In this document: in pieces, positions 6,739 to 62,190 of the stretch
Layout of the letters: each line of letters begins with the position of its first letter
Position numbering within the stretch: the first letter of the stretch is position 1
IMG/VR virus record: IMGVR_UViG_3300037755_000473
Span: 1,788-65,787 of that record
Length of the DNA stretch: 64,000 bases
DNA from: a virus
Taxonomy: Duplodnaviria > Caudoviricetes
Strand: one strand, 5' to 3'
The notes under the pieces: generated by a model
What the model saw: the letters and a program-made list of their open reading frames with translations, nothing else
What the model was told of the DNA's origin: nothing
The model's database searches: none
Made by a program: the position numbers and the translations under genes

Positions 6739-7107
6739 ATGCGCGCAGCACTTCGAGTTTTGGATGCACACAAGGTCAATCCCGTGAACGACGGTATTGT
6801 GATCGGCGTCATGGACGGACCTGGGCACGGCGGCGCGTCACACGAGTACCGCATCACGTTGCCCGACGGGCGCAACACGTTCATCAACTTCCAGAACGGA
6901 CCGATTAAAGAATCGGGCGTGAATGGACTCACGCACGAAGTGCTGCTTGCGATTCTGCTGGATCGCCTTGAAGGATTTCAGGCAGGACAGTACGCGTGTT
7001 GGGAAAACGCGGACGCACTGATCGACTTGGGCCGCGCGTTGAAGGTTCTGAAATCGCGCACCGAGAATCGAATTGCACGAGGCGTCGAAGGCACGCACGA
7101 GGTTTAA
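6739..7107 (+). CDS. tad1: Tad1-like anti-Thoeris signalling-molecule sponge protein
   Basis: GGASHEY, INFQNG, LLDRLEGFQAG, ENADAL and NRIARGVEGT match the conserved Tad1 pattern (GGAYHEY, FQKG, DRLKSFQAG, ENACAL, DRIERNVLGT). Confidence 0.85.
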   Translation: MRAALRVLDAHKVNPVNDGIVIGVMDGPGHGGASHEYRITLPDGRNTFINFQNGPIKESGVNGLTHEVLLAILLDRLEGFQAGQYACWENADALIDLGRALKVLKSRTENRIARGVEGTHEV

Positions 7108-7108
7108 G

Positions 7109-7276
7109 ATGGCACGAGCACGAATAGACGGGCACCGGCACCACGTGATTCTCACGGACCCCCAGCACAAGGGGCTCGAGAAACTCGCGTCGTCGACCGG
7201 CCTCACAACGTCTGAGCTGCATCGTCGGGCAATCGACATGCTCATCGCCGCGCACAAGAAGGAAAAGGCGAAGTGA
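7109..7276 (+). CDS. Ribbon-helix-helix (CopG/Arc-like) DNA-binding protein
   Basis: HHVILTDPQHKGLEKLASSTGLTTSELHRRAIDML fits the beta-strand plus two helices pattern. Confidence 0.7.
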   Translation: MARARIDGHRHHVILTDPQHKGLEKLASSTGLTTSELHRRAIDMLIAAHKKEKAK

Positions 7277-7458
7277 TTTTCGAGACAGTGATCCTCGTCC
7301 CGACACGAGTCGAAATCCACGCAGACAACCGCATCATTGCGAGTGAAGAAGCTCGTGAGATTGCGCGTCGCTATCCGCTGATCGGCGAGCACTGCGCGAA
7401 GGTGTTGTCGGTCAACGTCAAGCCGGGACAGGACCCCCCGCCGAAACGAGCCGCATAA
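7273..7458 (+). CDS. Small hypothetical protein
   Basis: GTGA overlap with the upstream gene. Confidence 0.55.
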   Translation: MIFETVILVPTRVEIHADNRIIASEEAREIARRYPLIGEHCAKVLSVNVKPGQDPPPKRAA

Positions 7459-7485
7459 AAAAGCCCCGGCTGTTACACCGGGGCT
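7457..7485 (-). terminator. Terminator-like hairpin with its U-tract on the - strand
   Basis: AGCCCCGG/CCGGGGCT stem preceded by an A-tract on the + strand. Confidence 0.6.
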
Positions 7486-7541
7486 CGGAGGCTGACGACG
7501 AGCAAGTTCACGACTGCGGGATTTAGTATAGGTCCAGAGCG

Positions 7542-8180
7542 ATGAAGACACAACGTTTCCCCAAGATTATATGGCCGCAGCAGATTGCTCGTACCCATCT
7601 GCTTCGGTACACGTCAAACGTACGCGTGCTGCACAGGACAATCGAGCACTGCAAAAAGCGCGGGCTCGCTGTGCAAGCTGGCGGGCACTGCGGCGTGTGG
7701 CCGCGGTATCTGGCGGCCAGGTTCAAGCGAGTGGTCACGTTCGAGCCGCATCCCGAGCTGTTCCCCGTGCTGTGTCAGAACGTAGAGAACAGCAACGTGG
7801 TGGCGCACAACGTGGCGCTGGGAAACAGCATCGCTCCAGTCGAGTTCGTTCTACAGGGCGGCACGATGGGCGGTAGCCACGTCGATGCCGCAGCACTAAA
7901 GAAGGGGCGGAAGTTCGTCATGGTGGAGCAAGCGAAGCTCGACAGCTTCGAGCTATCGCCCGATCTGATCGTCTTGGACATCGAAGGCTCCGAGCTCGAC
8001 GCGCTCCTGGGGGCGGAGGATACGATTCGCCGCTGCCGCCCTGTGCTGCATCTTGAGCTGTGTGGGCACATCGAGCGGTACAAACGGGGCACGTCGGACA
8101 TGCTGCGGGATTTTTTGAATGGCTATGGATACCAAGAAGTCAGTCGCGCCAACAAAGACGCCATCTTCGTCTGTCGCTGA
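7542..8180 (+). CDS. FkbM-family methyltransferase (copy 2)
   Basis: AVQAGGHCG, VTFEP and DLIVLDIEGSE motifs. Confidence 0.85.
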   Translation: MKTQRFPKIIWPQQIARTHLLRYTSNVRVLHRTIEHCKKRGLAVQAGGHCGVWPRYLAARFKRVVTFEPHPELFPVLCQNVENSNVVAHNVALGNSIAPVEFVLQGGTMGGSHVDAAALKKGRKFVMVEQAKLDSFELSPDLIVLDIEGSELDALLGAEDTIRRCRPVLHLELCGHIERYKRGTSDMLRDFLNGYGYQEVSRANKDAIFVCR

Positions 8181-8367
8181 GGTCTTCTCCGGCGTGCCGA
8201 AGCCGGAGAAGATCATTGAGGCCGTGCGAAAATATGTCCGCGGCACCGGGAGGGAGAAGGAAGACGGCCGGTCGGGAATTCGTGCGGTGATTAACTTCTA
8301 CCGCGATTACCCCGAGCGTGCCAAAGTAGTCGAGTTTTTGAAACGTGTTTTGAAGGAAGTGAAGTGA
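8119..8367 (+). CDS. Hypothetical protein
   Basis: ORF fills the gap between methyltransferases and is coupled to 8364. Confidence 0.5.
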   Translation: MAMDTKKSVAPTKTPSSSVAEVFSGVPKPEKIIEAVRKYVRGTGREKEDGRSGIRAVINFYRDYPERAKVVEFLKRVLKEVK

Positions 8368-8924
8368 CGAAGTTGATCGAAGCGCTGGGATTGAAGTGGG
8401 GCGACGAGGCCGACGAAAAGGAAATGCAGCACAAACTCGCTGACCGGGCTGTGCAGATTCCACGCAAGGACGCCTTCATTCGAGAGTACCTCCCCGAGTA
8501 CATGACTGGCGGGCATCGCGTGCTGGACGTTTCGTGCGGCGCGGGAATTTTTTTGGAGGTCATGCGCTACTACGGTAACGAGATCATGGGCACCGACGTG
8601 AATCGGTTTTCGCTCATGAAAGCGAAACAGGTTCCGTTCATCCCGCACAACTCTCACTCCCTGCCGTTCCCATTCAAAGACGGGGAGTTCGATCTAGTTA
8701 CTTGCCTCGGGTCCTTCGGTCAGTACGCGCAGCAGAATAAAGTCTATGCACGCCCACTCAGCGAGATTTTCGCAGAGTTGTTCCGCCTCGCGTCGAAGAC
8801 GGTCTTCGTGAAGATGAATTCCGTCGAGACGGCGATGGAGCACGCGAAGGTGTTCAAAGGGTACCCGAAGGGGTGGGCTTTCTCTGTTCGTGACACGACG
8901 GTGTTCAAGTACGTGAGGAAATAA
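8364..8924 (+). CDS. Class I SAM-dependent methyltransferase
   Basis: RVLDVSCGAG motif I; LPFPFKDGEFDLVTC motif II. Confidence 0.85.
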   Translation: MTKLIEALGLKWGDEADEKEMQHKLADRAVQIPRKDAFIREYLPEYMTGGHRVLDVSCGAGIFLEVMRYYGNEIMGTDVNRFSLMKAKQVPFIPHNSHSLPFPFKDGEFDLVTCLGSFGQYAQQNKVYARPLSEIFAELFRLASKTVFVKMNSVETAMEHAKVFKGYPKGWAFSVRDTTVFKYVRK

Positions 8925-9637
8925 TGGACAAGCTACAGATCGTTTTTCCGTACTACGACAACGCCCAGATGCTCGAGAAGCACATCGAGGTTTGGAAGTC
9001 GTGGCCGCGGGATTTGCAGCGCAAGGTCAGAGTCGTCATCGTCGATGACGGCAGCGAGAAGCAGCCTGCGCTACCCGTGCTCCAGCCGCACGAGCTGCCG
9101 GTTGAGCTCATGTTGTTCCGCATCCTCATCAACATCCGCTGGAACCAGAACGGCGCACGCAACCTCGCGATGACACATGTTGATGACGGATGGGTGCTGT
9201 CGACCGACGCTGACCACGTGATTCCCGAGTCGCAGCTTCGCGCGTTGCTATCTCTGTCGCTCGATCCGAAAATGTACTATCGGCCGGGGCGGCGACAGTT
9301 CGGGCACGAGAAGACCGTCTATAAGCGCCACCCGAATTCGTACGTGCTCACGAAGGAGCTTTATTGGCGTATCGGCGGGTATGACGAGGACTTCGCCGGC
9401 TACTACGGGAGCGACTGCACGTTTCGCAACGCGCTGAAGTTTTTCAGCAAGGGGAAGGAGATCGATCCGTACCTCGTGGTGTACAACGAGAAGGACATCC
9501 CCGACGCCAACACGACGGAGTTCGACCGCAAGACCGGACCTTACTACGCGCCGAACGTCCCTGCCCTTGCCTTGAAGCGTCGTAGCATTTACAAACCCGA
9601 CAATCCGATTCGGTTTCCTTGGGAGCGGCAGATATGA
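8924..9637 (+). CDS. Glycosyltransferase, GT2/GT7-like (GT-A fold)
   Basis: VVIVDDGS, RNLAM, STDADH (DxD) and IGGYDEDFAGYYGSD motifs. Confidence 0.85.
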   Translation: MDKLQIVFPYYDNAQMLEKHIEVWKSWPRDLQRKVRVVIVDDGSEKQPALPVLQPHELPVELMLFRILINIRWNQNGARNLAMTHVDDGWVLSTDADHVIPESQLRALLSLSLDPKMYYRPGRRQFGHEKTVYKRHPNSYVLTKELYWRIGGYDEDFAGYYGSDCTFRNALKFFSKGKEIDPYLVVYNEKDIPDANTTEFDRKTGPYYAPNVPALALKRRSIYKPDNPIRFPWERQI

Positions 9638-10209
9638 AGCACGCAGAGCAAGTGCGTAATCGCTACGTCGGCAAGACGGCCGCGGAGTACGACGCCAAAC
9701 GCATGAGCGAAACGCGGTGGCCGCGCGAGCAGCACGCGGTTCGTAAGTACCTCGGTGTGTTGAAGCCCGCACCGGCCGTGCTCGACATCCCCGCGGGCAC
9801 CGGACGCTATGCGCAAATCTACGCCGAGCTCGGAGCGAAGGTGACGGCGACGGACACTTCGGGCGACATGCTGGCGCTCGCCCGCGAAGCGTTCAAGCGG
9901 CACAGCGTTCCGCACTCGCTCGTTGTCGGCGACATCTTGAAGCTCGAGCCGCCCGAGGTGAAGTACGACGTTGCTGTTTGCACACGCATGCTGAACCACT
10001 TCACCCGACGTGAGGCAAAGCTGGCGGTGAGCAATTTGCTCGCTTGCGCCAACGCAGTGATTCTCAGTGTGCGCGAGCCGCTGCCGGGGCACTCGGACCC
10101 GAACTGGCATCCGCTCGAGCAGCTCACGCGCGCTTCGTCCGACATCACGGTCATCAGCGAGCGAGCGGACAGCCGCTACATCATGGCGCTCGTCCGCTAT
10201 GAGAGTTGA
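9634..10209 (+). CDS. Class I SAM-dependent methyltransferase
   Basis: VLDIPAGTGRY, DTSGDML and YDVAVC motifs. Confidence 0.85.
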   Translation: MKHAEQVRNRYVGKTAAEYDAKRMSETRWPREQHAVRKYLGVLKPAPAVLDIPAGTGRYAQIYAELGAKVTATDTSGDMLALAREAFKRHSVPHSLVVGDILKLEPPEVKYDVAVCTRMLNHFTRREAKLAVSNLLACANAVILSVREPLPGHSDPNWHPLEQLTRASSDITVISERADSRYIMALVRYES

Positions 10210-10792
10210 GTTTTTCGGCCCGCCCGGTGTCGGCAAAAGCTACGCGCGGCGGCTGTTGCTCGAAGCGGATAGCAGGCTCGACCTTCACACCGCGTGCGGG
10301 TCCGTGAAGGTGCTCAAAGACCACACTGAGTTTTACAACAGCTGTGTCGTGGCACAGCGAATGTACCAAGAGCACTGTGTCGTCCCTAAACGCGGTGCGA
10401 CGGGACCGGCCAACTTCCGGATGCGTGCTGCGAGAGCTGCCGCCGCCGCTGTGAGCAACAACATCATCGTGTTCGACGAGTCTCTGCTGCAAGCGACGCT
10501 CTCGTTTTCGTACGCGTGTCGGCACAACGCAGAGAATGTCGCCGAGTTCTTCTCCTCCGTGCCGCTTCCCGACGTAGCAATTTTGTGTTACGCCCCGAGC
10601 GAATTAGTCGTAGCGCGTAACAGCGGACGCGCTCGTAACTGGGGTTCGTCGGCGCTTGATTGTCTTCCGAGCGTTGAGCTCATTAAGAACATGCTGACTG
10701 AGCGCAACGGGGTTTGGTTCACATTGAACACGCAGAAGAACGAGCGCGAAATTACGCTGCATCTAATCGAGGGGCTTAAATGCTTTCTGTAG
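10199..10792 (+). CDS. P-loop kinase (nucleotide/sugar kinase-like)
   Basis: N-terminal VEFFGPPGVGKS Walker A; IVFDE; PLPDVAIL as in NMP kinases. Confidence 0.7.
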   Translation: MRVEFFGPPGVGKSYARRLLLEADSRLDLHTACGSVKVLKDHTEFYNSCVVAQRMYQEHCVVPKRGATGPANFRMRAARAAAAAVSNNIIVFDESLLQATLSFSYACRHNAENVAEFFSSVPLPDVAILCYAPSELVVARNSGRARNWGSSALDCLPSVELIKNMLTERNGVWFTLNTQKNEREITLHLIEGLKCFL

Positions 10793-11493
10793 TCTGTTGG
10801 TTGTGGCCGCCACGAGAGAGATACCGCTCGCAGTTCAACGCGAGCCACGTCAACATCTTTCGCAACATGATCGAGCGGCATCTGCATATCCCTCACGAGG
10901 TGGTGTGCATTACGAACATACCGAAGAATATCGATCCGCGTGTGCGCATCGTTCCGTTATGGGATACGTGGGCCGAGGTTCCGTCGCCGCACGGAGGGCT
11001 CTCTCCAGCGTGCTATCGACGCCTGCCTGCGTTCGGCGAGCACATGCGCGAGATTCTCGGGCCGAGGTTTATTTCCTTCGACCTGGACCTCGTGATCGTG
11101 GACGACATCACTCCGCTGGCAACGCGCACCGAAGACTTCATCATCTGGGGCTCGAAGCTCCGCCGCACGCCGTACAACGGCTCGATGTGGATGATGAACG
11201 CAGGGGCGCGGAAACAGATTTATGAGGAATTCGACCCACTGAAGACGCCCGCGCTCACGCTGAAGGCGGGGTTCCACGGTAGCGATCAGGCGTGGATTTG
11301 CTACAGGCTCGGTCACACGGAAGCAACATGGACGCCGGAACACGATGGCGTGTATTCTTTCCGGACTGATGTCGCGTTGAAACGGTATCGACTGCCCCCG
11401 GATGCACGAATCGTGTTTTTCCAGGGACACCATGATCCGCAATCGCGTGTCGACAACTCTCGTGCTCCGTGGATCAAAGACCACTATAAATAA
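10780..11493 (+). CDS. Glycosyltransferase (GT8-like, DxD motif)
   Basis: FISFDLDLVIVDDITPL, YNGSMW and GSDQAWI motifs. Confidence 0.75.
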   Translation: MLSVVCWLWPPRERYRSQFNASHVNIFRNMIERHLHIPHEVVCITNIPKNIDPRVRIVPLWDTWAEVPSPHGGLSPACYRRLPAFGEHMREILGPRFISFDLDLVIVDDITPLATRTEDFIIWGSKLRRTPYNGSMWMMNAGARKQIYEEFDPLKTPALTLKAGFHGSDQAWICYRLGHTEATWTPEHDGVYSFRTDVALKRYRLPPDARIVFFQGHHDPQSRVDNSRAPWIKDHYK

Positions 11494-12911
11494 TGGCCGC
11501 AAAAGACGGTTCCAACGCGCTAGTCAATTTCAAGACGCCGCCTACGGTCGGCGAGTTCATGTTGGATACGTCGTTCGTCCGTCTCATCATGGGGCCGGTC
11601 GGAAGCGGCAAATCGGCTGGGTGCTTCATGGAGCTCCTGCGCCGTGCCTACTTACAAGAGCCCGACAACCAGGGCATTCGCCGCACACGTTTCGCGATTA
11701 TTCGAAATACGTTGCAGCAGCTGCGGCAAACCTGCTTAGCGGACATCCAGCTGTGGCTGAGCTCGATTGCGCACTTCAAGGTCACAGATCAGACGATCCA
11801 GATTCGTCTTGATATGAAGGACGGCACGCACGTAGAGAGCGACTGGATGTTGATCCCGCTCGACACGAAGCAGGACCAACAGCGTTTGCTGTCGTTGAAC
11901 TTGACGGGTGCGTGGGTTTCGGAGTTCCGAGAAATTCCGCTCGAAATCATCGACGCTCTTTCCGGCCGTCTCGGCCGCTATCCCTCCAAGGCCATTGCGA
12001 AGCCTAGCTGGTTCGGGATCATCGCCGAGTCGAACCCGCCCGACGAAGACTCGGAGTGGTACACGAAGCTCGAGCTCGAACTGCCGCCTGATTGGAAGTT
12101 CTTCAAGCAGCCTGGCGGGCTTAGCGACGACGCAGAGAACGTCGAAAACCTACCCGAGAATTACTATCCCAAGCTCGCTGCAAACAATAACGCCGACTGG
12201 GTGGACATCCACGTCCACGCGAAATACGGCAAGTCGCTCTCGGGGCAGGCCGTCTTCCGCGCCACGTTCAACGTGATTCGCCACGTCACGTACGAACCGA
12301 TCAAGACGGTCCCAGGTATGGCCATCATGGTCGGGCAGGACTTCGGTCGCACGCCGGCGAGCTTGATCGGGCAGATCGATAACCGCGGACGTTTGGTGAT
12401 CCTACGTGAAGCAGCGACGGCACAAGAAGACGCGATGGGTATCGAGAAATTCGGCAAAGAGATTTTGCGGCCGATGCTCTATCAGCATTACCCGAACACC
12501 GAGATTTTCATGGTTGCTGACCCGAGCGGCAAGGTGAAGACACAGGTGCGGGAAGAGTCACCGTTCGACATGTTGCACCGACTTGGCTTCATCGTTTATC
12601 CGGCGCAGACGAACGACATCGAGCCGCGACTGCGCGCGGTCGAGCAGCTGTTCCTACAGCACGACGGAATTCTGATTGACGGATCGAACTGCCCGCAGCT
12701 CGTGCAGGCGTTGAAGTCGTGGTATCGCTACAAACGAAAGCAAACCGGCACGCTCGACGAGACGCCGGAGAAGAACCACCCGTGGTCGGACCTCGCCGAC
12801 TGCTTGCAGTACATGGCGCTCGCCGTTCACGGCAACTACATCGGGAACCTGATTAGTCGGAAGCGAGCTCGCCCTCGAGGGCCGGCAGTGTCGGCAGCGA
12901 GTTGGACGTAG
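11493..12911 (+). CDS. terL: Terminase large subunit
   Basis: MGPVGSGKS Walker A, GAWVSEFRE, VGQDFGRTPA nuclease motif, C-terminal HPWSDLADCLQY. Confidence 0.92.
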   Translation: MAAKDGSNALVNFKTPPTVGEFMLDTSFVRLIMGPVGSGKSAGCFMELLRRAYLQEPDNQGIRRTRFAIIRNTLQQLRQTCLADIQLWLSSIAHFKVTDQTIQIRLDMKDGTHVESDWMLIPLDTKQDQQRLLSLNLTGAWVSEFREIPLEIIDALSGRLGRYPSKAIAKPSWFGIIAESNPPDEDSEWYTKLELELPPDWKFFKQPGGLSDDAENVENLPENYYPKLAANNNADWVDIHVHAKYGKSLSGQAVFRATFNVIRHVTYEPIKTVPGMAIMVGQDFGRTPASLIGQIDNRGRLVILREAATAQEDAMGIEKFGKEILRPMLYQHYPNTEIFMVADPSGKVKTQVREESPFDMLHRLGFIVYPAQTNDIEPRLRAVEQLFLQHDGILIDGSNCPQLVQALKSWYRYKRKQTGTLDETPEKNHPWSDLADCLQYMALAVHGNYIGNLISRKRARPRGPAVSAASWT

Positions 12912-13371
12912 TACCGTCGATTGTGACGCCGGCGCGTTCGCCGTTCTTCGTCTCGATGGTGATGTTGATGACGGCTCCGTGAGAGATACCGCTCGCGTTG
13001 CCAGCACTCTCCCCGCGCGAATTCGTCTTCCCTGCAAATACGCCCATCGCCTTGATGGCGTCCAAGCGCTGCTGCCGCGGCGACTCCTTATCGTGCGCAA
13101 CTTCGTACAGCACGGGTAGGGAGTCCTCGAGCATGATCTCGGCTTTCTTGGTGATCCGTTTGCCAGCGTTGAGGTCGCCTTTCCATTCGCCGATGGCCTC
13201 GGCGAGCATGCTGCGAAAGGCCGGCGACTTCTTCAGCCGATCCCATTGGGACTGGGAAATCTGATACTTGGAGCGAATCTCGGCAGCTGTTGCGAGTCCT
13301 GCTGCGAGCTCGGCGCAGATCGTCGCGCTGAGGTGCTCGATGTCTAGGGCGGTGACGAGTACGGCGGCCAT
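12853..13371 (-). CDS. Putative terminase small subunit-like protein, antisense to the structural operon
   Basis: Helix-turn-helix-like N-terminus, helical body, GAVINITIE beta-strand tail; located between terL and portal. Confidence 0.5.
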   Translation of the reverse strand: MAAVLVTALDIEHLSATICAELAAGLATAAEIRSKYQISQSQWDRLKKSPAFRSMLAEAIGEWKGDLNAGKRITKKAEIMLEDSLPVLYEVAHDKESPRQQRLDAIKAMGVFAGKTNSRGESAGNASGISHGAVINITIETKNGERAGVTIDGTTSNSLPTLPALEGELASD

Positions 13372-13422: not shown

Positions 13423-15591
13423 ATGCCTTGCATGGCAGCCCTAGCAAGCGCAATCCCACGTCCGCTACCTGGCGGTGGAATGCTCCGCGTCGTCTCTAAC
13501 CAGACGCTCGTCGAGCAGGAACGCAACGCCGCCGCAGTCGCCGAGCAAGAGCGACAAGCTCAAGAGGCTCCACTCAACCAACTTGCCGCGTACATTCGCG
13601 GGCGCATGTCCGAAATGCGTAATTTTCGGAACACCGAGGGCATCGGTGAGCGGTTGCTCGAAGGGCTTCGAACGTACAAGGGTATGTACGACCCGCAGAA
13701 ATTGGCGGAGATCAAGAAGTTCGGCGGTAGCGAAGTCTACGCGCGCGTCACCGCAACAAAATGTCGCGCAGCCACTGCTCTCCTCCGCGACGTGTTCCTC
13801 GGCTCCGAGCGACCGTGGGACCTCGACCCGACACCGAACCCCGAAATTCCGATGGACATCGAGGGCAACATCAGGACCCTCGTTGCGACCGAAGTAGCGA
13901 CGCTCGCTGCCACCGGTCAGCAGATCGACGACCAGATGATCGCGGATCGTGTTGGCATGCTGCGCAAGGCAGCAGAGCGCGCCGCGAAGAAGCAAGCAAT
14001 CGAGGAAGCCGACAAAGCCGGCGACGTGCTCGATGACTATCTGCTTGAAGGTAACTTTTACGAAGCGTTCGCAGAGTTCCTCGTCGACCTCCCGATTTTT
14101 CCTTACGCTGTGATGAAAGGTCCGGTCGTTCGCCGCGCTTCGAAGTTGAAGTGGGTGAACGGCAAAGCGACGACGGAGTACACGCCGAAGTTGTTCTGGG
14201 AGCGCGTGTCACCATTCGATCTTTATTGGTCGCCTGGTGCGGGCAAAGTTCAGCACGCCGACTTCATCGAACGCATTCGTCTCACGCGTGCCGAGATTCA
14301 GGCGCTGCGCGGTCTCCCCGGATATAACACCGAGAACATCGACGAGGTGCTTGGCCGCTTCTACAACACGGGGCTCCATGATTGGTGGGATACGGTCGAT
14401 ACCGAACGCGCGCAGCTCGAAGATCGCGAGCGCTGGGGTCGCACGACCACGCCGCTGATCGACTGCGCTGCGTACACCGGCTTCGTTTCCGGCAAGCTCC
14501 TGAAAGAGTGGGGCATGACTGACGCGCAGATCGACGACGAGCTCGGTGAGTATTTCGTCACGTGCTGGATGATCGATCGGTTCGTCATCAAAGCGCAGAT
14601 CAATCCGTCGCCTGACCAACGCGCTCCGTATTACATCAGCTCGTTCGAAAAGATTCCGGGTGCGCTCATCGGTTACGGCTTACCGGACTTGCTGGAAGAC
14701 GTGCAGCAAATCTGCAACGCGACCGTGCGCTCGCTGGTGAACAACCTGTCTATCGCTTCCGGCCCGCAAGTCGTCGTCAATGATGAAGTGCTGCAAGCAG
14801 GCGAAGACGACATGTTGTATCCGTGGAAGCGGTGGCATGTGTCGTACGACCCGATGGTGGCGAACAGCCACGAGCCGATTTCGTTCTTTCAGCCCGAGTC
14901 GAATGCCCCTGAGCTCATGGGCGTGTACGAGAAATGGGTCGTGATGGCTGACGAGATCAGCTCGATACCGCGGTACATGACGGGCAACGAGAAGGTCGGC
15001 GGCGCGGGCCGCACGGCTTCCGGTTTGGCAATGCTGATGTCGAACGCCTCGAAGACGCTTCAGAACGTCGCTGCGCAGATTGATCGTGACGTGCTCGAAC
15101 CGCTGCTGTTGCAGCTATTCAACATGGTCATGATTACGCGTCCTGGGGTGCTCAACGGTGACGAAACCGTTGTCGTGAAGGGCGTGAACCACGCCGTCAA
15201 GCGCGAGCAAGACCGCATGCGGCAGCTGGAATTCTTGCAGCTCACGGCCAACCCCATTGACATGTCGATCATCGGGCCGGAAGGTCGCTCCAATGTTCTG
15301 CGCTCTGTCGCGTCGAACCTCGGGCTCGAGCACGAGCGCGTGGTCCCCGATTCGGCAACGCTCGAGCAGCGCATGCAAGAGCAAGCGGCGATGCAGCAAC
15401 AGCAGATGGCGCAAGGCGATCCGAACGCTCAGCCTGGCGCTCAGCCTGGTGCGCAACCGGGCAACCCGCAGCAGATGCCGAAGCCGCAGCCCGGTCGTGC
15501 AATGCCGGAGCAAGTGCGAAAGCAGACTGGCGTCGAAAGCCAATTTACAAACCAAGCAACAGGCAGACCCGGAATGCGGGCAGGAGGCTAG
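13423..15591 (+). CDS. Portal protein (alternative start 13432)
   Basis: 722 aa after terL; FEKIPGALIGYG and DEISSIPRY segments typical of podovirus portals; Gln/Pro-rich tail. Confidence 0.85.
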   Translation: MPCMAALASAIPRPLPGGGMLRVVSNQTLVEQERNAAAVAEQERQAQEAPLNQLAAYIRGRMSEMRNFRNTEGIGERLLEGLRTYKGMYDPQKLAEIKKFGGSEVYARVTATKCRAATALLRDVFLGSERPWDLDPTPNPEIPMDIEGNIRTLVATEVATLAATGQQIDDQMIADRVGMLRKAAERAAKKQAIEEADKAGDVLDDYLLEGNFYEAFAEFLVDLPIFPYAVMKGPVVRRASKLKWVNGKATTEYTPKLFWERVSPFDLYWSPGAGKVQHADFIERIRLTRAEIQALRGLPGYNTENIDEVLGRFYNTGLHDWWDTVDTERAQLEDRERWGRTTTPLIDCAAYTGFVSGKLLKEWGMTDAQIDDELGEYFVTCWMIDRFVIKAQINPSPDQRAPYYISSFEKIPGALIGYGLPDLLEDVQQICNATVRSLVNNLSIASGPQVVVNDEVLQAGEDDMLYPWKRWHVSYDPMVANSHEPISFFQPESNAPELMGVYEKWVVMADEISSIPRYMTGNEKVGGAGRTASGLAMLMSNASKTLQNVAAQIDRDVLEPLLLQLFNMVMITRPGVLNGDETVVVKGVNHAVKREQDRMRQLEFLQLTANPIDMSIIGPEGRSNVLRSVASNLGLEHERVVPDSATLEQRMQEQAAMQQQQMAQGDPNAQPGAQPGAQPGNPQQMPKPQPGRAMPEQVRKQTGVESQFTNQATGRPGMRAGG

Positions 15592-18015: not shown

Positions 18016-19044
18016 ATGTCCTATCCTCAAATCGCTGCACCGGGTGCAGCAGTTACCTGGGGCGGCAACGCTCCGAACCCGGCCTACTCGGGCATCTTCA
18101 TTCCGGAGATTTGGTCCGGCAAGCTGATCGAGAAGTTCTACGCGGCAACCGTGCTCGGCGCAATCGCGAACACGGACTACGAGGGCGAGATCAAGAACCA
18201 GGGCGACTTGGTGAAGATTCGCACTCGGCCGACCATCGCGATTTCCGACTACTCGGCCAACGAGGAACTCGGTATCCAGCGCCCGTCGAGCAACCTCGTC
18301 GAGCTGCTGATCGACCAAGGCAAGTACTTCAACTTGGCCCTGGACGACGTGATGGAGATTCAGAGCGACATCGACCAGCTGTCGATCTGGGCGGAAGACG
18401 CTTCCGAGCAGATGAAGATCGCCGTCGACACGGACGTTCTGAACTACCTAGCCTCGCCGACGAATACCGACATCGCCGCCGTCAACCGCAGTTCGCAGAC
18501 TTCGGGTGCCATCTCGGGCGACATCGCGCTCGGCGGCTACGGTGAGCCGGTGTTCATCAACAAGCAGGGCTACGGTACCGAGGACGGCTCCGACGCGGAC
18601 AACTCCATGTCCATCGTCGACTATCTCGTGAACTGCGGCCAGGTGCTCGACGAGCAGAACATTCCGGAGACCGGCCGCTGGGTCGTGATTCCGGCGTGGG
18701 TTGCATCGCGCATCAAAAAGTCGGAGCTGAAGGACGCCTCGCTCTCGGGCGACGGTACGTCGATCCTTCGCAACGGCCGCTTGGGCATGATCGACCGCTT
18801 CACGCTCTATCTGAGCAACCTCCTGCTCCCGCAGGGTGGTTACGCAGACGAGTGGCCGATTCTGTTCGGCACGAGTGCGGCGCTCACGTTCGCCTCGCAG
18901 CTCACCAAGATGGAAACGCTCCGTTCCGAGCGCTCCTTCTCGCAGCTGGTTCGCGGCTTGCAGGTTTACGGCTTCAAGGTCGTGAACGGCGTCGCAATCG
19001 GTCGCGGTGTGGTTGGCAAGGGCGGCGTGCCCTCCGGCAGCTAA
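18016..19044 (+). CDS. Major capsid protein (HK97 fold)
   Basis: FIPEIWSGKLIEKFY...DYEGEIKNQGDLVKI pattern; strong RBS; followed by a terminator. Confidence 0.9.
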   Translation: MSYPQIAAPGAAVTWGGNAPNPAYSGIFIPEIWSGKLIEKFYAATVLGAIANTDYEGEIKNQGDLVKIRTRPTIAISDYSANEELGIQRPSSNLVELLIDQGKYFNLALDDVMEIQSDIDQLSIWAEDASEQMKIAVDTDVLNYLASPTNTDIAAVNRSSQTSGAISGDIALGGYGEPVFINKQGYGTEDGSDADNSMSIVDYLVNCGQVLDEQNIPETGRWVVIPAWVASRIKKSELKDASLSGDGTSILRNGRLGMIDRFTLYLSNLLLPQGGYADEWPILFGTSAALTFASQLTKMETLRSERSFSQLVRGLQVYGFKVVNGVAIGRGVVGKGGVPSGS

Positions 19045-19473: not shown

Positions 19474-20180
19474 TGCCGGATTCAATCTTCATCGAAGGCA
19501 CAGGGTGTGAATGCGATGTCACACTCGACCGCTGGTTGAAGGACACGCTCCCGATGCTCCCCGGCGCAGTGCGCGGGGTGGCCGCGCGCGAGCTCGTCCT
19601 CGCCTGCCGTGAGTTCTTCGAGCGGTCGTATGCGTGGCAGACGGTGCTCGAGGATCAGAACGCGAAGGCTGGCCGCAAGCAGTACTGGCTGTCGCCCCTC
19701 GATCAATACACGAACGTCATCGGCGTGCTGGGTGTGGCCTACAAAGGCACCCCGCTTGCGCGCCTGCAAGCGCGTCCTCCGCGTCGTAGCGAGTCGGAAG
19801 CTACGAACACGCCGCGGGCGTACTACTCCCCCGATGCTCCCGACAGCATCGAGCTCTATCCTGACCTCGACCACGACGAAGATGCCGGCCTTGCCTTCCA
19901 CGTCGCTCTGACGCCGAAGGTCTCCGTCGAGCACCTGCCTCGCGTGGCCGAGATCAAATATTATGATGCGATCCTCGACGGCTTCCTCGCTCGGATGTTC
20001 ATGCACCCGAACAAGCCGTACTCCTCGCTGACGCTCGCCCAAGCCAAGCGAAAGAGTTTTAACTCGTGGATCGGTCGCTACGCCGGCCAGGCGAAGCAGG
20101 GCAACATCAACGCGCAGAACTGGGTTTACCCGCCCGGTTGGGGCGTGCGTAGGTACGGGGGCGGGTCGAGTGTCGGCTGA
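19473..20180 (+). CDS. Tail adaptor/tubular protein A-like
   Basis: Position; ACREFFERSYAWQ and ARMFMHPNKPYS segments. Confidence 0.6.
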   Translation: MPDSIFIEGTGCECDVTLDRWLKDTLPMLPGAVRGVAARELVLACREFFERSYAWQTVLEDQNAKAGRKQYWLSPLDQYTNVIGVLGVAYKGTPLARLQARPPRRSESEATNTPRAYYSPDAPDSIELYPDLDHDEDAGLAFHVALTPKVSVEHLPRVAEIKYYDAILDGFLARMFMHPNKPYSSLTLAQAKRKSFNSWIGRYAGQAKQGNINAQNWVYPPGWGVRRYGGGSSVG

Positions 20181-20800
20181 TGGCCGCTACACTTTATCCA
20201 ACAGCTCTCGCCGCGCTGCTCGCCGAGACTCTTGACTGGACTGCTGAAGAGATTCATGTCGTCCTGTTAGGGCCGAGCTTTGTCTTTGATCCTACGCTCG
20301 TGTATGCGAGCGAGTTGCCGTCCGCACACATCATCGCGATCAGCGAGCTCGGGCTGGCTAACCGTTCGTACGACGACGGTGTTGCTCGCGGCGACCCAGC
20401 CGCGTTTTTGCAGCTGCTGTCGAATCAAGAGATCACGCATGCTGTCGTGTTTCAGCATGTCGGCGACTTGCAGTATTCGCCGCTGATCGCGTACTACGAC
20501 GTAGACAACATCCTCGGAGCGCCGCTCCTGCCCCTCGGTTTGGACGTGTTTCTATACTCGCCTGTCGAGCCCGGTGGCTGGTTTCAGGTTATTGATTCGG
20601 ATTTGATCGGGCTCATCAACTCTGAGTTGCTCGGCAGCGGCGACCTAGCTATCGCCGAGCTGAGTGGCGGGCTATCGTTGGTGATGCCGACGCTTCAACT
20701 CGGCAACCGACTCAACGTCAATACGCATATTGTATGCGCGGGTCCGGACGAACCGGATGACTGCTGCGAGCCGGAAATCAGGAGCTCCCGATGCGACTAG
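20180..20800 (+). CDS. Putative tail structural protein
   Basis: Translationally coupled within the tail operon. Confidence 0.55.
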   Translation: MAATLYPTALAALLAETLDWTAEEIHVVLLGPSFVFDPTLVYASELPSAHIIAISELGLANRSYDDGVARGDPAAFLQLLSNQEITHAVVFQHVGDLQYSPLIAYYDVDNILGAPLLPLGLDVFLYSPVEPGGWFQVIDSDLIGLINSELLGSGDLAIAELSGGLSLVMPTLQLGNRLNVNTHIVCAGPDEPDDCCEPEIRSSRCD

Positions 20801-21111
20801 GGCGGTACACGAAGTTGGGCCGGATCGTGCAACAGCCGAACGAGAACATTCGGCGGTTGGCGAAGTACGACCGCTGGCTCGAGGAAGGTGAGCGGATTAC
20901 GAACGTGGAAGTGTCGGTGTTGCCGGTCACGTCGCCACCGTTCGTCATCAACAACATCGTCATCGGCCCTGATTCCGACCGTTTCGCGTACTACGCGAGC
21001 GGCGGCGTCGACGGTGAGGACTACACTGCAACTGTCACGATCACGACCAGCATCGCGCAGGTGCGCGAAGACGAATTGCTGTTCGGGGTGAAGGAGATCA
21101 GCCGTGGCTGA
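20791..21111 (+). CDS. Putative fibre-tail adaptor protein
   Basis: YDRWLEEGERI...GGVDGEDYTATVTITTS pattern of small beta-rich tail adaptors. Confidence 0.55.
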   Translation: MRLGRYTKLGRIVQQPNENIRRLAKYDRWLEEGERITNVEVSVLPVTSPPFVINNIVIGPDSDRFAYYASGGVDGEDYTATVTITTSIAQVREDELLFGVKEISRG

Positions 21112-22165
21112 GAAAGTCTTTTCGAACAACGCGAGCTCGCTGCTCGCCGCGAGCATCGACGACAACGACACCGTTGTTCAAGTCGATTCCGGCGCAGGCG
21201 CGCTCTTTCCTTCACCTGGCGCTGGGCAACACTTCGTAGCAGCGTTGGTAAACGCCAGCGGGGACCTCGAGATCGTCAACTGCACGAGCCGCACCGGCGA
21301 CCTCATTACAGTCGTGCGCGGACAAGAAGGCACGGCTGCACAAGCGTGGACAAACGGCGTTACGCGCTTCGAGCTTCGCCTCACTGCTGGCGTCATGGAC
21401 GACCTGTTGCAAAAGACCGGCGATGCAATGACCGGCGATTTGCTCATGGGGGGCAATGAGATTCAGGATGCGCGTCTCACCGAAGATACGGTGATGGTTG
21501 GCGGGCAGACTGTCGGCACTGCGATTCGTGGCGCTGAGGATGATGCTTCGAACGAGATTGCTGTTCCGGGTGACGGGTCAAGGGCGACGGCGGGCGGTTC
21601 TCCGCTCGTGACCTTGGCCGACAACTTGCTGACGTTGCTGCCTATCGGTTTCATCGGCATGTGGTACGGCTCGCTCGGCAGCTTGCCCGCTGGTTGGCAA
21701 AACTGCGACGGTACTAACGGCTCTCCCGATATGCGTGGGTTCTTCCCTCGCGGCGCTGGAGGCTCTCTAGCCCTCGGAGCCACCGGAGGTGCTGCTACAG
21801 CGTCTGGGAATACTGACGCCGCTGGCGGCCATAGCCACACGGTTACGGTCGACGGGCATGCTCTTACGACTGCTGAGCTCCCGGCTATTAGTCCGCGTGT
21901 GCTCGACCGCGGGGGTGGTTCCGGTGTTGCAGACGGTTCTGGGCTTACCGCTTGCCAAAGTCTCGCAGGCATTCGTAACGTCGCTGAAGGTAGCTACGTC
22001 ACGAACAATTCTCTCGGCACACCGTTTATCGAGCCGCTGGGTGGCGGCAATGCGCACGATCACTCTGCCGCTTCTAACGCCGTCGGCAATCACACGCACG
22101 GCCTCGGTAGCATCTCCACCATCCCGCCGTACAAGGCGGTGTACTTCATCATGAAGGTGTCGTGA
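21104..22165 (+). CDS. Tail fibre with collar domain
   Basis: FSNNASS anchor domain; PIGFIGMWYGSLGSLPAGWQNCDGTNGSPDMRG collar motif; HSH/HDH/HTH motifs. Confidence 0.8.
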   Translation: MAEKVFSNNASSLLAASIDDNDTVVQVDSGAGALFPSPGAGQHFVAALVNASGDLEIVNCTSRTGDLITVVRGQEGTAAQAWTNGVTRFELRLTAGVMDDLLQKTGDAMTGDLLMGGNEIQDARLTEDTVMVGGQTVGTAIRGAEDDASNEIAVPGDGSRATAGGSPLVTLADNLLTLLPIGFIGMWYGSLGSLPAGWQNCDGTNGSPDMRGFFPRGAGGSLALGATGGAATASGNTDAAGGHSHTVTVDGHALTTAELPAISPRVLDRGGGSGVADGSGLTACQSLAGIRNVAEGSYVTNNSLGTPFIEPLGGGNAHDHSAASNAVGNHTHGLGSISTIPPYKAVYFIMKVS

Positions 22166-56951: not shown

Positions 56952-58337
56952 TCACGGCTTCTCGTCCATCATTTCGAGCGCGCCCTTCGCGTACTTGGCA
57001 AGCGTCTTGCGAAGGTGCTCGTCCTTGCGAATGTCGACGGCCTCGTGCATCGTCAGGTGCTTCTCGATGTAGAAGCGCACGCTCTCGATACGCTGATCGC
57101 CGATGACGTTCAGGTGCTTCAAGAGCTTGGCCTGCTCCCGAAGGTTCTCCACCATCGTCGTGTGAAACAGCGCGTCGGGATTGCCTAGACGCTCAGCAGC
57201 GTGCGACACGATCTCGTGCAGCCGCACCCATGCGTCCTGCATCGCGTTCTCCAACATGACGTTGGTCTTGCGCTGCATCGCGTCCGCGAGCTTATCGACC
57301 TGGGCCTGTGCGAGCCCCTTGAAGTCGTCTCCCAACGGGATGGGCATGAAGTCGAACGACAGATCGAAGTGCTGCCCAATCGACGAGCTGTGCGGATACT
57401 CGGCCTGGTTGAACCGCGTACCCAGCTTCGTCTTGGCGAGGTTCACCAAGCCTGGGTAGGCAGGGATGAAGTCGGCGAGCGCCTGCTTCATTTCCTGCTT
57501 CGCGTGTGCCATCGCCGTCGTGTACTCCATGAACAGCGTGTTCGGGAGCAGCCGTGCCCCCGTGCGCTTCCCGCTCTCAGCAGCCGACACCGTGCTCCAC
57601 GGGAGCGTCATGTCGTAGTGCTTCGCACGAGCAATGTCGAGCGCCTTGTGGATGCGCTTCAACTTCTCGTCTGCACCCACGAGCAGCCGCTTGTGTGTGT
57701 CGAACGCTTCGGAGTCTGCGCCGGACGCAGTAGCCGCATCCTTCGACGCCTGGCGATCCTTCACCTTGGCGTGCCAACGCTTCGTCTGCAACGACACCAG
57801 CGTGCCGAAGTTCCGAATGTCGATGGCCTCCGCGATCTCGTCGTTGGTGAACGTCGGGATGTGAATCTGCGGACCCGACGCCTTGGCTGGCATGGTTGCC
57901 ACACCTGGGCTCAGCTCGGCCTCGGCTTCCTCTGCCGTGCCTGACAGCTCCCCCTGCACTTGTGATAACGACCCCCCCTCTTCGGCCATGAGCCCCCGCA
58001 GGATGTCCTCATCCGACGCGTCGCCTTCCGGCTCCACATGCGTGTGGGAAGCCTGAACCGGGCTTTCCTCTTCAGCGCCGGCCTCGAGCTCGTCTAAAAC
58101 GTCGTCAGCTGCGCCGTTGACGATCCTGTCCAGAGCAGCCATCGGATCGTCATCGTCGTCCACGGCGGGTTTGGCGGCGCGAGGGCGCTCCTCGTACACC
58201 TCCGCCTCCATCGCTTCCTCCGCCTGGATATCGGGCGGGTCAGCGTCGGTAGGTGCGCTCTCCACGGGCTCGTCCAGCAACCCTGCAAGTAGGTCTTGCA
58301 GATCGCCGTCGAGACCGCTCTCACTTTCCTTCGTCAT
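56952..58337 (-). CDS. DUF3150-like protein with a long acidic N-terminal extension
   Basis: HYDMTLPW...GARLLP...F..YP.L...LGTRFNQAEYP...F.F.PIP pattern; first ~150 aa Asp/Glu-rich. Confidence 0.65.
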   Translation of the reverse strand: MTKESESGLDGDLQDLLAGLLDEPVESAPTDADPPDIQAEEAMEAEVYEERPRAAKPAVDDDDDPMAALDRIVNGAADDVLDELEAGAEEESPVQASHTHVEPEGDASDEDILRGLMAEEGGSLSQVQGELSGTAEEAEAELSPGVATMPAKASGPQIHIPTFTNDEIAEAIDIRNFGTLVSLQTKRWHAKVKDRQASKDAATASGADSEAFDTHKRLLVGADEKLKRIHKALDIARAKHYDMTLPWSTVSAAESGKRTGARLLPNTLFMEYTTAMAHAKQEMKQALADFIPAYPGLVNLAKTKLGTRFNQAEYPHSSSIGQHFDLSFDFMPIPLGDDFKGLAQAQVDKLADAMQRKTNVMLENAMQDAWVRLHEIVSHAAERLGNPDALFHTTMVENLREQAKLLKHLNVIGDQRIESVRFYIEKHLTMHEAVDIRKDEHLRKTLAKYAKGALEMMDEKP

Positions 58338-61590: not shown

Positions 61591-62190
61591 TTACTGCAAA
61601 CCGAGAATCGCGTTCAGCTCCGACGACTGGATCACGAGCGCAGTGCCAATCGGCTCAGGCTTGAAGAAACCCTCGGGCATGAGCGCGAGGACCTCGGGCC
61701 ATCGTTCGATCAGCTGGTCGCACGTTCTGCATTGGCTCAGGAAGCCATCGACCTTGCGTTGCAGCTCGTTGCGCTTCGAACGCCACTGCTCGCTGATGAA
61801 CTCGTCCTCTGCCAGTATGCGCGACTTCGGGCTGTCGAGCTTCGGGTTGCGCGTCTCGTAGTGATGCGCGTGGATAAAGAGCTTCGGCTCTGAGAAGTGC
61901 AGCAAGACGGACTCGTGCCCGTCGTTGCGCATTGACTTGATGTGAACGCGCTGGTTGATCGCATTCGGAAGCCAGCCCAAGGGCAGCTTCTTCATGCGAG
62001 ACCGCTCTGCCGCCGTGTATATCTCGTTGTACACCGCATCGTGGAGCTTCTTCTGCTCCTTCGACCCGCGTACCATCCACGGCCGCTTCTTCGCAGCAGT
62101 GCGACAGTCCTCGTCGAACTTGTTGAGCGCAGCCATCATGATTTCGCTGCGCACATCGTTGTTGAGCTTTCGGTATTGCTTGCTAGCCAT
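61591..62190 (-). CDS. Nmad5-like (nucleotide modification-associated domain 5) protein
   Basis: KLNNDVRSEIM N-terminus and CRTCDQLIERWPEVLALMP...ELNAILGL C-terminus typical of Nmad5. Confidence 0.7.
   Translation of the reverse strand: MASKQYRKLNNDVRSEIMMAALNKFDEDCRTAAKKRPWMVRGSKEQKKLHDAVYNEIYTAAERSRMKKLPLGWLPNAINQRVHIKSMRNDGHESVLLHFSEPKLFIHAHHYETRNPKLDSPKSRILAEDEFISEQWRSKRNELQRKVDGFLSQCRTCDQLIERWPEVLALMPEGFFKPEPIGTALVIQSSELNAILGLQ

Follow-up and report, generated by a model that had tools for sequence, protein, structure and literature searches.

The question addressed here is what is made by a run of methyltransferase, glycosyltransferase and kinase genes that leads, without a gap, into the large terminase gene (terL) of an uncultured tailed phage (Duplodnaviria; Caudoviricetes), the IMG/VR record IMGVR_UViG_3300037755_000473. 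The window analysed is 64,000 nucleotides long and covers bases 1788–65787 of this record, which has a length of 65,787 bp and a completeness of 100% (CheckV); unless a locus name or the record is given, positions are those of the window. The gene cluster occupies positions 7542–11493 of the plus strand. Comparison with related phages identifies the locus as a glycan-decoration cassette that is accessory and swappable, inserted at a hot spot that has conserved small genes on one side and terL on the other. The reading that we favour, at a probability of roughly 50%, is a late-expressed pathway by which virion proteins receive a glycan that is both methylated and phosphorylated.

Gene order and coupling to terL

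The first gene of the cluster (7542–8180) encodes an FkbM-family S-adenosylmethionine (SAM) methyltransferase of 212 aa (PF05050, E = 2.9e-17), and is followed by a small open reading frame (ORF) of 82 aa (8119–8367), which is not an enzyme and is conserved in relatives. Next come a class-I SAM methyltransferase of 186 aa, here MT2 (8364–8924; Methyltransf_11, E = 7e-8), a soluble GT2-family glycosyltransferase of GT-A type and 237 aa (8924–9637; PF00535, E = 1e-9), and a second class-I SAM methyltransferase of 191 aa, MT3 (9634–10209; Methyltransf_25, E = 7e-16). A P-loop kinase of 197 aa (10199–10792; Walker A GPPGVGKS) and a predicted GT8-fold, retaining-type GT-A glycosyltransferase of 237 aa, termed GT8l (10780–11493; phrog_1962, E = 9e-11), complete the series before terL (11493–12911; phrog_2, E = 6e-25), all on the plus strand. 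Overlaps at the successive junctions from FkbM to terL are 62, 4, 1, 4, 11, 13 and 1 nt, with the stop of GT8l overlapping the start of terL. Because every junction overlaps, the cassette genes and terL are one translationally coupled unit. For MT3, a start at ATG 9634 is likelier than at TTG 9619, and for the kinase ATG 10199 is likelier than GTG 10067.

A preliminary description of this DNA had listed seven overlapping or abutting genes running into terL, together with a second FkbM gene near 2104. Both observations were reproduced: the second FkbM methyltransferase gene lies outside the cassette (2047/2104–2727, plus strand; PF05050, E = 8.5e-11), and its product is 45% identical to that of the gene at 7542. 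Loss of catalytic residues, a concern raised in the same description, was not encountered, with SAM motif I, the DDGS/DAD motifs, Walker A and the lid arginines, and the DxD and D-Q motifs all present. Late expression, which had also been proposed, is likely because the cluster is physically chained to terL. In the 83-bp gap 5′ of the cassette, a 10-bp GC-rich hairpin is found at 7461–7486. It is not a canonical plus-strand terminator, since only the minus strand carries the T-run; to its right, no gene of the minus strand is found close by.

Variation of the cassette among related phages

For comparison across relatives, 67 related IMG/VR loci were gathered by a terL-based scan, and the cluster genes were mapped onto them. 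The cassette was absent from approximately half of the phages with 60–90% identical terL, and many relatives at 61–69% terL identity had no enzymes at all. Where the cassette is missing, a conserved 67-aa gene (7073–7276 in the window), a conserved 61-aa gene (7273–7458) and the small ORF are found directly before terL; small-ORF homologues in this position were seen in L019, L023, L024, L038, L040 and L053. Because the small ORF is present directly before terL in relatives that carry no enzymes, it is regarded as a core gene outside the pathway, and its earlier listing as a pathway member is not retained. No PHROG, Pfam or Atlas match was obtained for it; at a guess from its position, it may be TerS-like or otherwise packaging-related. 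Enzymes fill two insertion slots, one on either side of the small ORF, which forms the upstream edge of the main slot; FkbM, 5′ of the small ORF, occupies the second.

Every cassette-bearing relative with a contig extending far enough 5′ of terL was found to carry GT8l, immediately or almost immediately before terL, and some relatives have only GT8l and a CmcI/TylF-type O-methyltransferase, or only GT8l and an epimerase. The variable set in relatives comprises GT2 and FkbM enzymes, glycosyltransferases of GT-D fold (also fused to GT2), a PF17784 sulfotransferase, Methyltransf_24 sugar O-methyltransferases, a Polysacc_synt_2 4,6-dehydratase, a UDP-glucose-dehydrogenase fragment and an NAD-epimerase. 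Judged by these family assignments, the pooled content of the relatives' cassettes is glycan-building machinery. The PF17784 sulfotransferases were located within the cassettes of L011 (1576–2157), L020 and L037 (cluster 8). Anionic decoration may be a recurring theme, with sulfate in relatives and phosphate here. In the sub-clade L042–L047, a protein of 545–697 aa with no Pfam match is encoded between GT8l and terL (e.g. L045:5911–8004).

An identical gene order was found in the phage contig L073, namely FkbM, small ORF, methyltransferase, GT2, methyltransferase, kinase, GT8l, a 68-aa gene, terL, a reverse gene and portal, and the 62-nt overlap between FkbM and the small ORF is present there too. 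Identities between the window and L073 are 88% for terL, 83% for portal and 80% for GT8l; for FkbM, the small ORF, MT2, GT2, MT3 and the kinase they are 48, 56, 45, 51, 41 and 36%, respectively. The change is sharp and falls at the kinase/GT8l junction (10792/10780 in the window; L073:6212–6225), with 36–56% identity to the left and 79–88% to the right, which suggests recombination swapping cassette alleles. Across 15 loci, which are not independent, the identity of GT8l follows that of terL (Spearman 0.73, p = 0.002), whereas GT2 identity does not (Spearman 0.28); the GT2 alleles of relatives fall into two classes, approximately 50% or 32% identical. Since GT8l follows terL identity and the breakpoint lies at the kinase/GT8l junction, GT8l can be read as a conserved anchor tied to the head module, and the elaborating enzymes as exchanged in the form of divergent alleles. 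The survey of synteny proposed in the preliminary description therefore had a mixed outcome: an exact copy of the cluster exists in L073, and the cluster as a whole is variable and absent from about half of relatives.

The GT8-like glycosyltransferase

An AlphaFold2 model of GT8l, built on 24 homologues, reached a predicted local distance difference test (pLDDT) score of 92. The top Foldseek match was the lipooligosaccharide (LOS) galactosyltransferase LgtC (1g9r; E = 2e-8, TM-score 0.66), followed by glycogenin-2 (4ueg), GT6 ABO transferases, GlyE and LARGE1. Residues D101, D103, S168 and D169 are invariant across the 24 homologues, and Q170 is nearly so. The modelled GT-A fold is thus closest to GT8 and carries the DxD and D-Q motifs of that family. 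At the level of sequence, no Pfam family was matched by GT8l at E ≤ 0.01 and no PDB sequence below E = 0.49.

The GT8l family contains more than 1,231 proteins; no member has a Pfam domain, and almost every one is encoded on a contig that is short or of phage size. When one genome per species was scanned with a pattern (185,579 prokaryote species), a single relative was returned, on a contig of a metagenome-assembled genome, and that contig holds another cassette of GT8l, methyltransferase, GT8l and GT2 genes. In BFVD, the closest viral folds were GT8-like proteins of uncultured phages, in some cases as fusions with Maf/MptE-like domains. Both GT-D and Maf enzymes act in protein glycosylation.

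Members of the GT8l family were found in the head-morphogenesis modules of three unrelated phage types. In the clade of the present phage, the gene stands before terL. In EBPR siphovirus 3, the family member lies two genes upstream of portal, which is gp4 (PF04860, E = 7e-80). GT8l of 'Tetraselmis viridis virus S20' is the last gene of a cassette in the order GT-D, methyltransferase, GT2, FkbM, x, GT8l, placed between the capsid genes and head closure. The locus and its GT8l family of more than 1,200 members together suggest that uncultured phages of other hosts commonly carry comparable glycan cassettes, and that these diversify through allele swapping beside packaging genes.

Methyltransferases and the GT2 enzyme

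Scores of the FkbM protein exceed the curated cut-offs of its hidden Markov models (HMMs), with 63.8 bits against 22.7 for PF05050 and 66.3 bits against 37.7 for TIGR01444; phrog_8156 was matched at E = 1.7e-31. MT2 scored 33.4 bits with Methyltransf_11 (cut-off 21.2) and also matched Methyltransf_23 (E = 1.4e-7), and MT3 scored 59.1 bits with Methyltransf_25 (cut-off 27). Both have the glycine-rich motif I and the acidic residue ending strand 2 that are expected of class-I SAM methyltransferases (VLDVSCGAG...GTD in MT2, VLDIPAGTG...ATD in MT3). Homologues of MT2 are present in L004 and L073. PDB sequence searches with MT2 and MT3 returned generic class-I methyltransferases only, and for MT3 no match was obtained by tblastn against 50,697 GenBank phage records at E ≤ 1e-3.

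The GT2 protein scored 39.0 bits with PF00535 (cut-off 23.3) and contains DDGS at 41–44, the DxD motif as D95-A-D97 (DAD 95–97) and a GGYDEDF motif. It is weakly similar to ArnC and EpsD. A polyprenol-phosphate transferase of ArnC/GtrB type is not indicated: the protein lacks C-terminal transmembrane helices (maximum 19-residue Kyte–Doolittle mean 0.95) and reached 25.6 bits with the ArnC model, for which the cut-off is 529.

The P-loop kinase and its pairing with MT3

The kinase combines the Walker A motif with D93-E94 and an RNSGR lid that includes R140 and R144; all of 45 distant relatives share G7, G12, K13 and R147. Its AlphaFold2 model (pLDDT 81) was compared by Foldseek and VIA-align, the best fold match being thymidine monophosphate (TMP) kinase 5x7j (VIA-align Z = 13.0, root mean square deviation 3.5 over 165 residues). 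By motifs and modelled fold, the protein is a P-loop kinase that resembles nucleoside and deoxynucleoside monophosphate kinases. Thymidylate kinase proper (PF02223) was not matched, AAA_33 being the only match and falling short of its cut-off (19.4 bits against 27); among the 45 distant relatives, 12 matched PF02223 weakly. PDB sequence searches gave nothing usable for the kinase or for GT8l. A sulfotransferase, prompted by PF17784 in the relatives' cassettes, was also considered as an identity for the kinase and was rejected on the basis of a classical Walker A motif, the absence of any match to a sulfotransferase model among the 45 members, and a fold that is that of kinases.

The family is sparsely represented. 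A word-indexed search of 5.8 billion proteins gave only four other homologues, and an exhaustive profile search gave 86 relatives, which match generic kinase models only (AAA_33, AAA_18, Thymidylate_kin and dNK). No match was found by tblastn in the 50,697 GenBank phage records at E ≤ 1, nor in PHROG, and neither the kinase nor MT3 had a homologue in the 67 IMG/VR loci.

Where the kinase does occur in phages, it is accompanied by a methyltransferase. MT3 is directly upstream of it, with an identical 11-nt overlap, in five of five phage contigs (the window, L073 and three more). In these three further contigs, the methyltransferase–kinase pair is followed by a gene of approximately 239 aa where the contig continues, confirmed to be GT8-like in L075. 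In a sixth contig, the methyltransferase is downstream of the kinase.

Distant cellular relatives of the kinase (approximately 250 aa, E of about 1e-7 to 1e-6) were found in polysaccharide loci in all five contexts inspected. The first of these contains Wza/Wzc/Wzx and GT4s; the second GT2s together with PMT_2, Wzx and methyltransferases; the third Wzc, an ABC transporter and dTDP-sugar genes; the fourth KpsC/S-like genes with NeuB and a CMP-sugar synthetase; and the fifth GT9, GT2, FkbM, GT4, Wzy_C and a sulfotransferase. No curated name is attached to any of the five relatives. Because these relatives lie in polysaccharide loci, the kinase family appears to be tied to glycan assembly rather than to nucleotide metabolism.

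The combination of a kinase with methyltransferases had been considered an unusual chemistry, for which there is in fact a precedent. In Escherichia coli O9a, WbdD phosphorylates the terminal sugar of the O-polysaccharide and then methylates it, giving a methyl-phosphate cap (PMC3482155). WbdD was not among the PDB sequence matches of MT3, and the pair is not a WbdD-type terminator by homology. We tentatively suggest that the MT3–kinase pair may act in a WbdD-like manner through non-homologous enzymes. Somewhat more speculative is a fuller proposal, in which GT8l would prime a conserved virion protein, the upstream enzymes would be swapped, and the MT3–kinase pair would be a new WbdD analogue capping the glycan with methylated phosphate. 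If true, this would define a previously uncharacterised glycan-kinase family common to phages and to bacterial capsule and lipopolysaccharide (LPS) loci. As an uncharacterised P-loop kinase family that is methyltransferase-paired in phages, it is a candidate for a new glycan-phosphorylating or glycan-capping activity.

A proposed pathway to a virion glycan

The enzymes form a coherent set for building and tailoring a glycan, as the preliminary description had supposed, and with intact motifs throughout and the kinase relatives in polysaccharide loci, a methylated, phosphorylated glycan is a reasonable product. The same description held that the sequence does not reveal the substrate, a statement that is upheld. 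To our knowledge, experiments have demonstrated only in a few actinobacteriophages that phage-encoded enzymes glycosylate the virion, a modification that lowers antibody recognition in these phages.

No transmembrane segment was found in any cluster protein, and the cassette has no flippase, ligase or polyprenol-phosphate glycosyltransferase. With no transmembrane segment, flippase or polyprenol-phosphate enzyme, the acceptor is therefore predicted to be cytoplasmic. According to the proposed scheme, the cassette would be transcribed and translated together with the packaging and head genes. GT8l, evolving with the head module, would use a host nucleotide-sugar to attach the first sugar to the cytoplasmic acceptor, most likely a virion protein, and the soluble GT2 enzyme would lengthen the glycan. 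FkbM and the class-I methyltransferases would then O-methylate it. Finally, the MT3–kinase pair would phosphorylate a sugar hydroxyl and possibly methylate a hydroxyl or the phosphate, resulting in a cap like that made by WbdD. Related phages would differ in the resulting glycan coat, which would be methylated and anionic. A virion acceptor is favoured by the solubility of the enzymes, the coupling of the cassette to terL, the negative search for an integrase, the position of GT8l-family genes in head modules of two unrelated siphophages, and the precedent in mycobacteriophages.

Several observations weigh against a virion glycan of this kind. No acceptor signature and no Ser/Thr-rich tail were found in the major capsid protein (18016–19044), and capsid sequences showed no clear difference between cassette-bearing and cassette-less relatives, C-termini included. 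The positions of GT8l genes in head modules could merely be tolerated moron insertion sites, and the best structural matches of the kinase are nucleotide kinases. The case for late expression consists of gene overlap only: the hairpin 5′ of the cassette has a minus-strand orientation, and no sigma-70-like promoter was found in the 83-bp gap. A search by tblastn with GT2, FkbM and GT8l detected no homology to mycobacteriophage glycosylation genes. Gene content was compared between two complete cassette-bearing and three cassette-less genomes, plus loci, a comparison confounded by phylogeny. Two small genes (206 and 106 aa; 20180–21111) and a full-length tail fibre (21104–22165) were present only in cassette-bearing G001, G002, L037 and L046; they are missing from cassette-less G003–G005, L050 and L053, and also from cassette-bearing L022 and L033. 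The genes at 20180–22165 could be acceptors or a mere lineage signal.

As a separate observation on the major capsid protein, it ends in a 6-residue C-terminal extension, GVPSGS, that is missing in most relatives.

Alternative roles of the cassette

A possible, if doubtful, alternative is that the cassette remodels the host LPS core, O-antigen, exopolysaccharide (EPS) or a capsule precursor at the cytoplasmic face during infection. Such remodelling could mask receptors and so reduce adsorption of progeny and competing phages to infected cells and debris. The closeness of the GT8l fold to LgtC, the weak similarity of GT2 to ArnC and EpsD, and the cellular kinase relatives in capsule, EPS and LPS-core loci, one of them also with FkbM, GT2 and GT9, all agree with this role, and cassette variation among relatives resembles that of O-antigen loci. 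Against it, the cassette has no transmembrane segments, flippase, ligase or polyprenol-phosphate glycosyltransferase, and coupling to terL implies late synthesis with little time to export a modified glycan. In unrelated phages, members of the GT8l family also lie inside the head module. As no tyrosine integrase was found in the genome, lysogenic seroconversion of the classical kind is unlikely.

Hypermodification of phage DNA with a glycan or phospho-glycan near packaging, as a protection against restriction, is improbable. The cassette does abut terL, all seven cluster proteins are basic (pI 8.5–10), the kinase fold is like that of TMP kinase, and phage GT-A enzymes that glycosylate 5-hydroxymethylcytosine (5hmC) exist, some of them near terminase (bioRxiv 10.1101/2023.12.21.572611). 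Even at E ≤ 1, however, a six-frame search of the complete record gave no match to Tet_JBP (PF12851), C5 DNA_methylase (PF00145) or Thymidylat_synt (PF00303), so that a ThyA-like hydroxymethylase, a TET/JBP enzyme and a C5-methyltransferase are all lacking. Neither the kinase nor MT3 has a counterpart among the GenBank phages searched. The cellular relatives of the kinase lie in polysaccharide loci, and the cassettes of phage relatives hold nucleotide-sugar dehydratases, sulfotransferases and GT-D enzymes. Modification of DNA at packaging, one of the options of the preliminary description, is for these reasons disfavoured. Membership of the kinase in the group of 5-hydroxymethyluracil DNA kinases (5-HMUDK) of thymidine-hypermodifying phages is likewise not indicated, with no kinase match in the 50,697 phage records (in which the presence of M6, ViI and SP10 was unchecked) and no Thymidylat_synt-like gene; remote homology to 5-HMUDK within the P-loop fold is conceivable.

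An Nmad5-domain gene at 61591–62190 on the minus strand (PF18757, E = 4e-13) is a further point for DNA modification, set against the lack of an aGPT-Pplase-like neighbour. In M6-like phages, Nmad5 is found within a thymidine-hypermodification cassette that includes a nucleotide kinase (PMC9476957). A pathway of this type was considered for the surroundings of the gene and rejected, as its neighbours gave no aGPT-Pplase or kinase matches and the rest of the M6/SN1-type set is absent.

A role in making or tailoring some soluble small molecule is highly improbable; candidates would be a sugar carrying methyl or phosphate groups, a nucleoside, or a compound resembling a glycosylated cofactor. FkbM and class-I methyltransferases do often tailor natural products, weak matches link GT2 and MT3 to the mycofactocin enzymes MftF and MftM, and the kinase fold is common to AbmG, gluconate kinase and shikimate kinase, but the cluster has no scaffold-forming enzyme, the NCBIfam matches (MftF, MftM) are far below cut-offs, and a recurring head-module position and the co-evolution of GT8l with terL fit a free metabolite badly.

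Other features of the phage genome

The genome has a GC content of approximately 60%. Its plus strand encodes an SU10-type portal (13423–15591; SU10_portal), internal virion proteins, tail fibres and a virion protein of 2,795 aa, and its minus strand a replication module with a DUF927 primase-helicase, an SNF2 helicase, PolA and a MoxR/VWA pair. Between terL and portal, a conserved 172-aa gene on the minus strand (12853–13371) shares 59 nt with the 3′ end of terL; nearly all relatives carry this gene, which belongs to phrog_36773, where its function is unassigned. A 461-aa protein encoded at 56952–58337 (minus strand) showed a weak match to the TelK 'stirrup' (E = 0.0012) that did not pass the cut-off, and a protelomerase-like role for it is possible but unsupported. 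A 20-bp identical repeat was found at both ends of the record (G000:C1:1–20 and 65768–65787), which is listed as linear in IMG/VR; the assembly is probably circular or circularly permuted.

A DNA-level similarity search against GenBank phages gave no match. Among cultured phages, the closest are RHph_TM3_14A-type phages of Rhizobium, whose terL is 48% identical and which have no comparable cassette.

Comparison with known systems

GT8l has the GT-A fold, DxD motif and D-Q motif in common with GT8 enzymes such as LgtC, glycogenin and GlyE of the pneumococcal serine-rich-repeat pathway. It differs from them in having no Pfam match, in being shorter (237 aa), and in that its family consensus lacks a conserved histidine to serve as the third metal ligand.

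The MT3–kinase gene pair, with its 11-nt overlap, resembles WbdD as an obligatory pairing of a SAM methyltransferase and a kinase among glycosyltransferases. In WbdD, the kinase has a eukaryotic-protein-kinase fold and is fused to the methyltransferase and a coiled coil, whereas here it is a separate P-loop protein that models as TMP-kinase-like.

Phage DNA glycosylation clusters (MT/5mYOX or ThyS with a glycosyltransferase; Pyle et al., bioRxiv 10.1101/2023.12.21.572611) share with the cassette GT-A enzymes, sometimes near terminase, and extra sugar-modifying enzymes. Unlike in those clusters, the partner that makes the 5hmC or 5-hydroxymethyluracil (5hmU) handle is absent from the complete genome here.

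Glycan-decoration systems of the sort favoured for the cassette are already known in a few phages, and mycobacteriophages provide the functional precedent. In an account that summarises Freeman 2023 (PMC11600133), mycobacteriophage glycosyltransferase and O-methyltransferase genes are described as modifying capsid and tail-tube proteins. The genes covered there (the O-methyltransferase and tandem glycosyltransferases of cluster O/Corndog type, and the Che8 type) resemble the present ones in combining soluble glycosyltransferases with an O-methyltransferase, and are described as dispensable and unevenly distributed among relatives. The resemblance is genomic, the virion glycan being demonstrated in mycobacteriophages and the cassette here being known from its genes. 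Unlike the mycobacteriophage systems, the cassette belongs to a phage whose nearest cultured relatives infect Rhizobium, stands immediately before terL, and adds to the glycosyltransferases a P-loop kinase and three methyltransferases.

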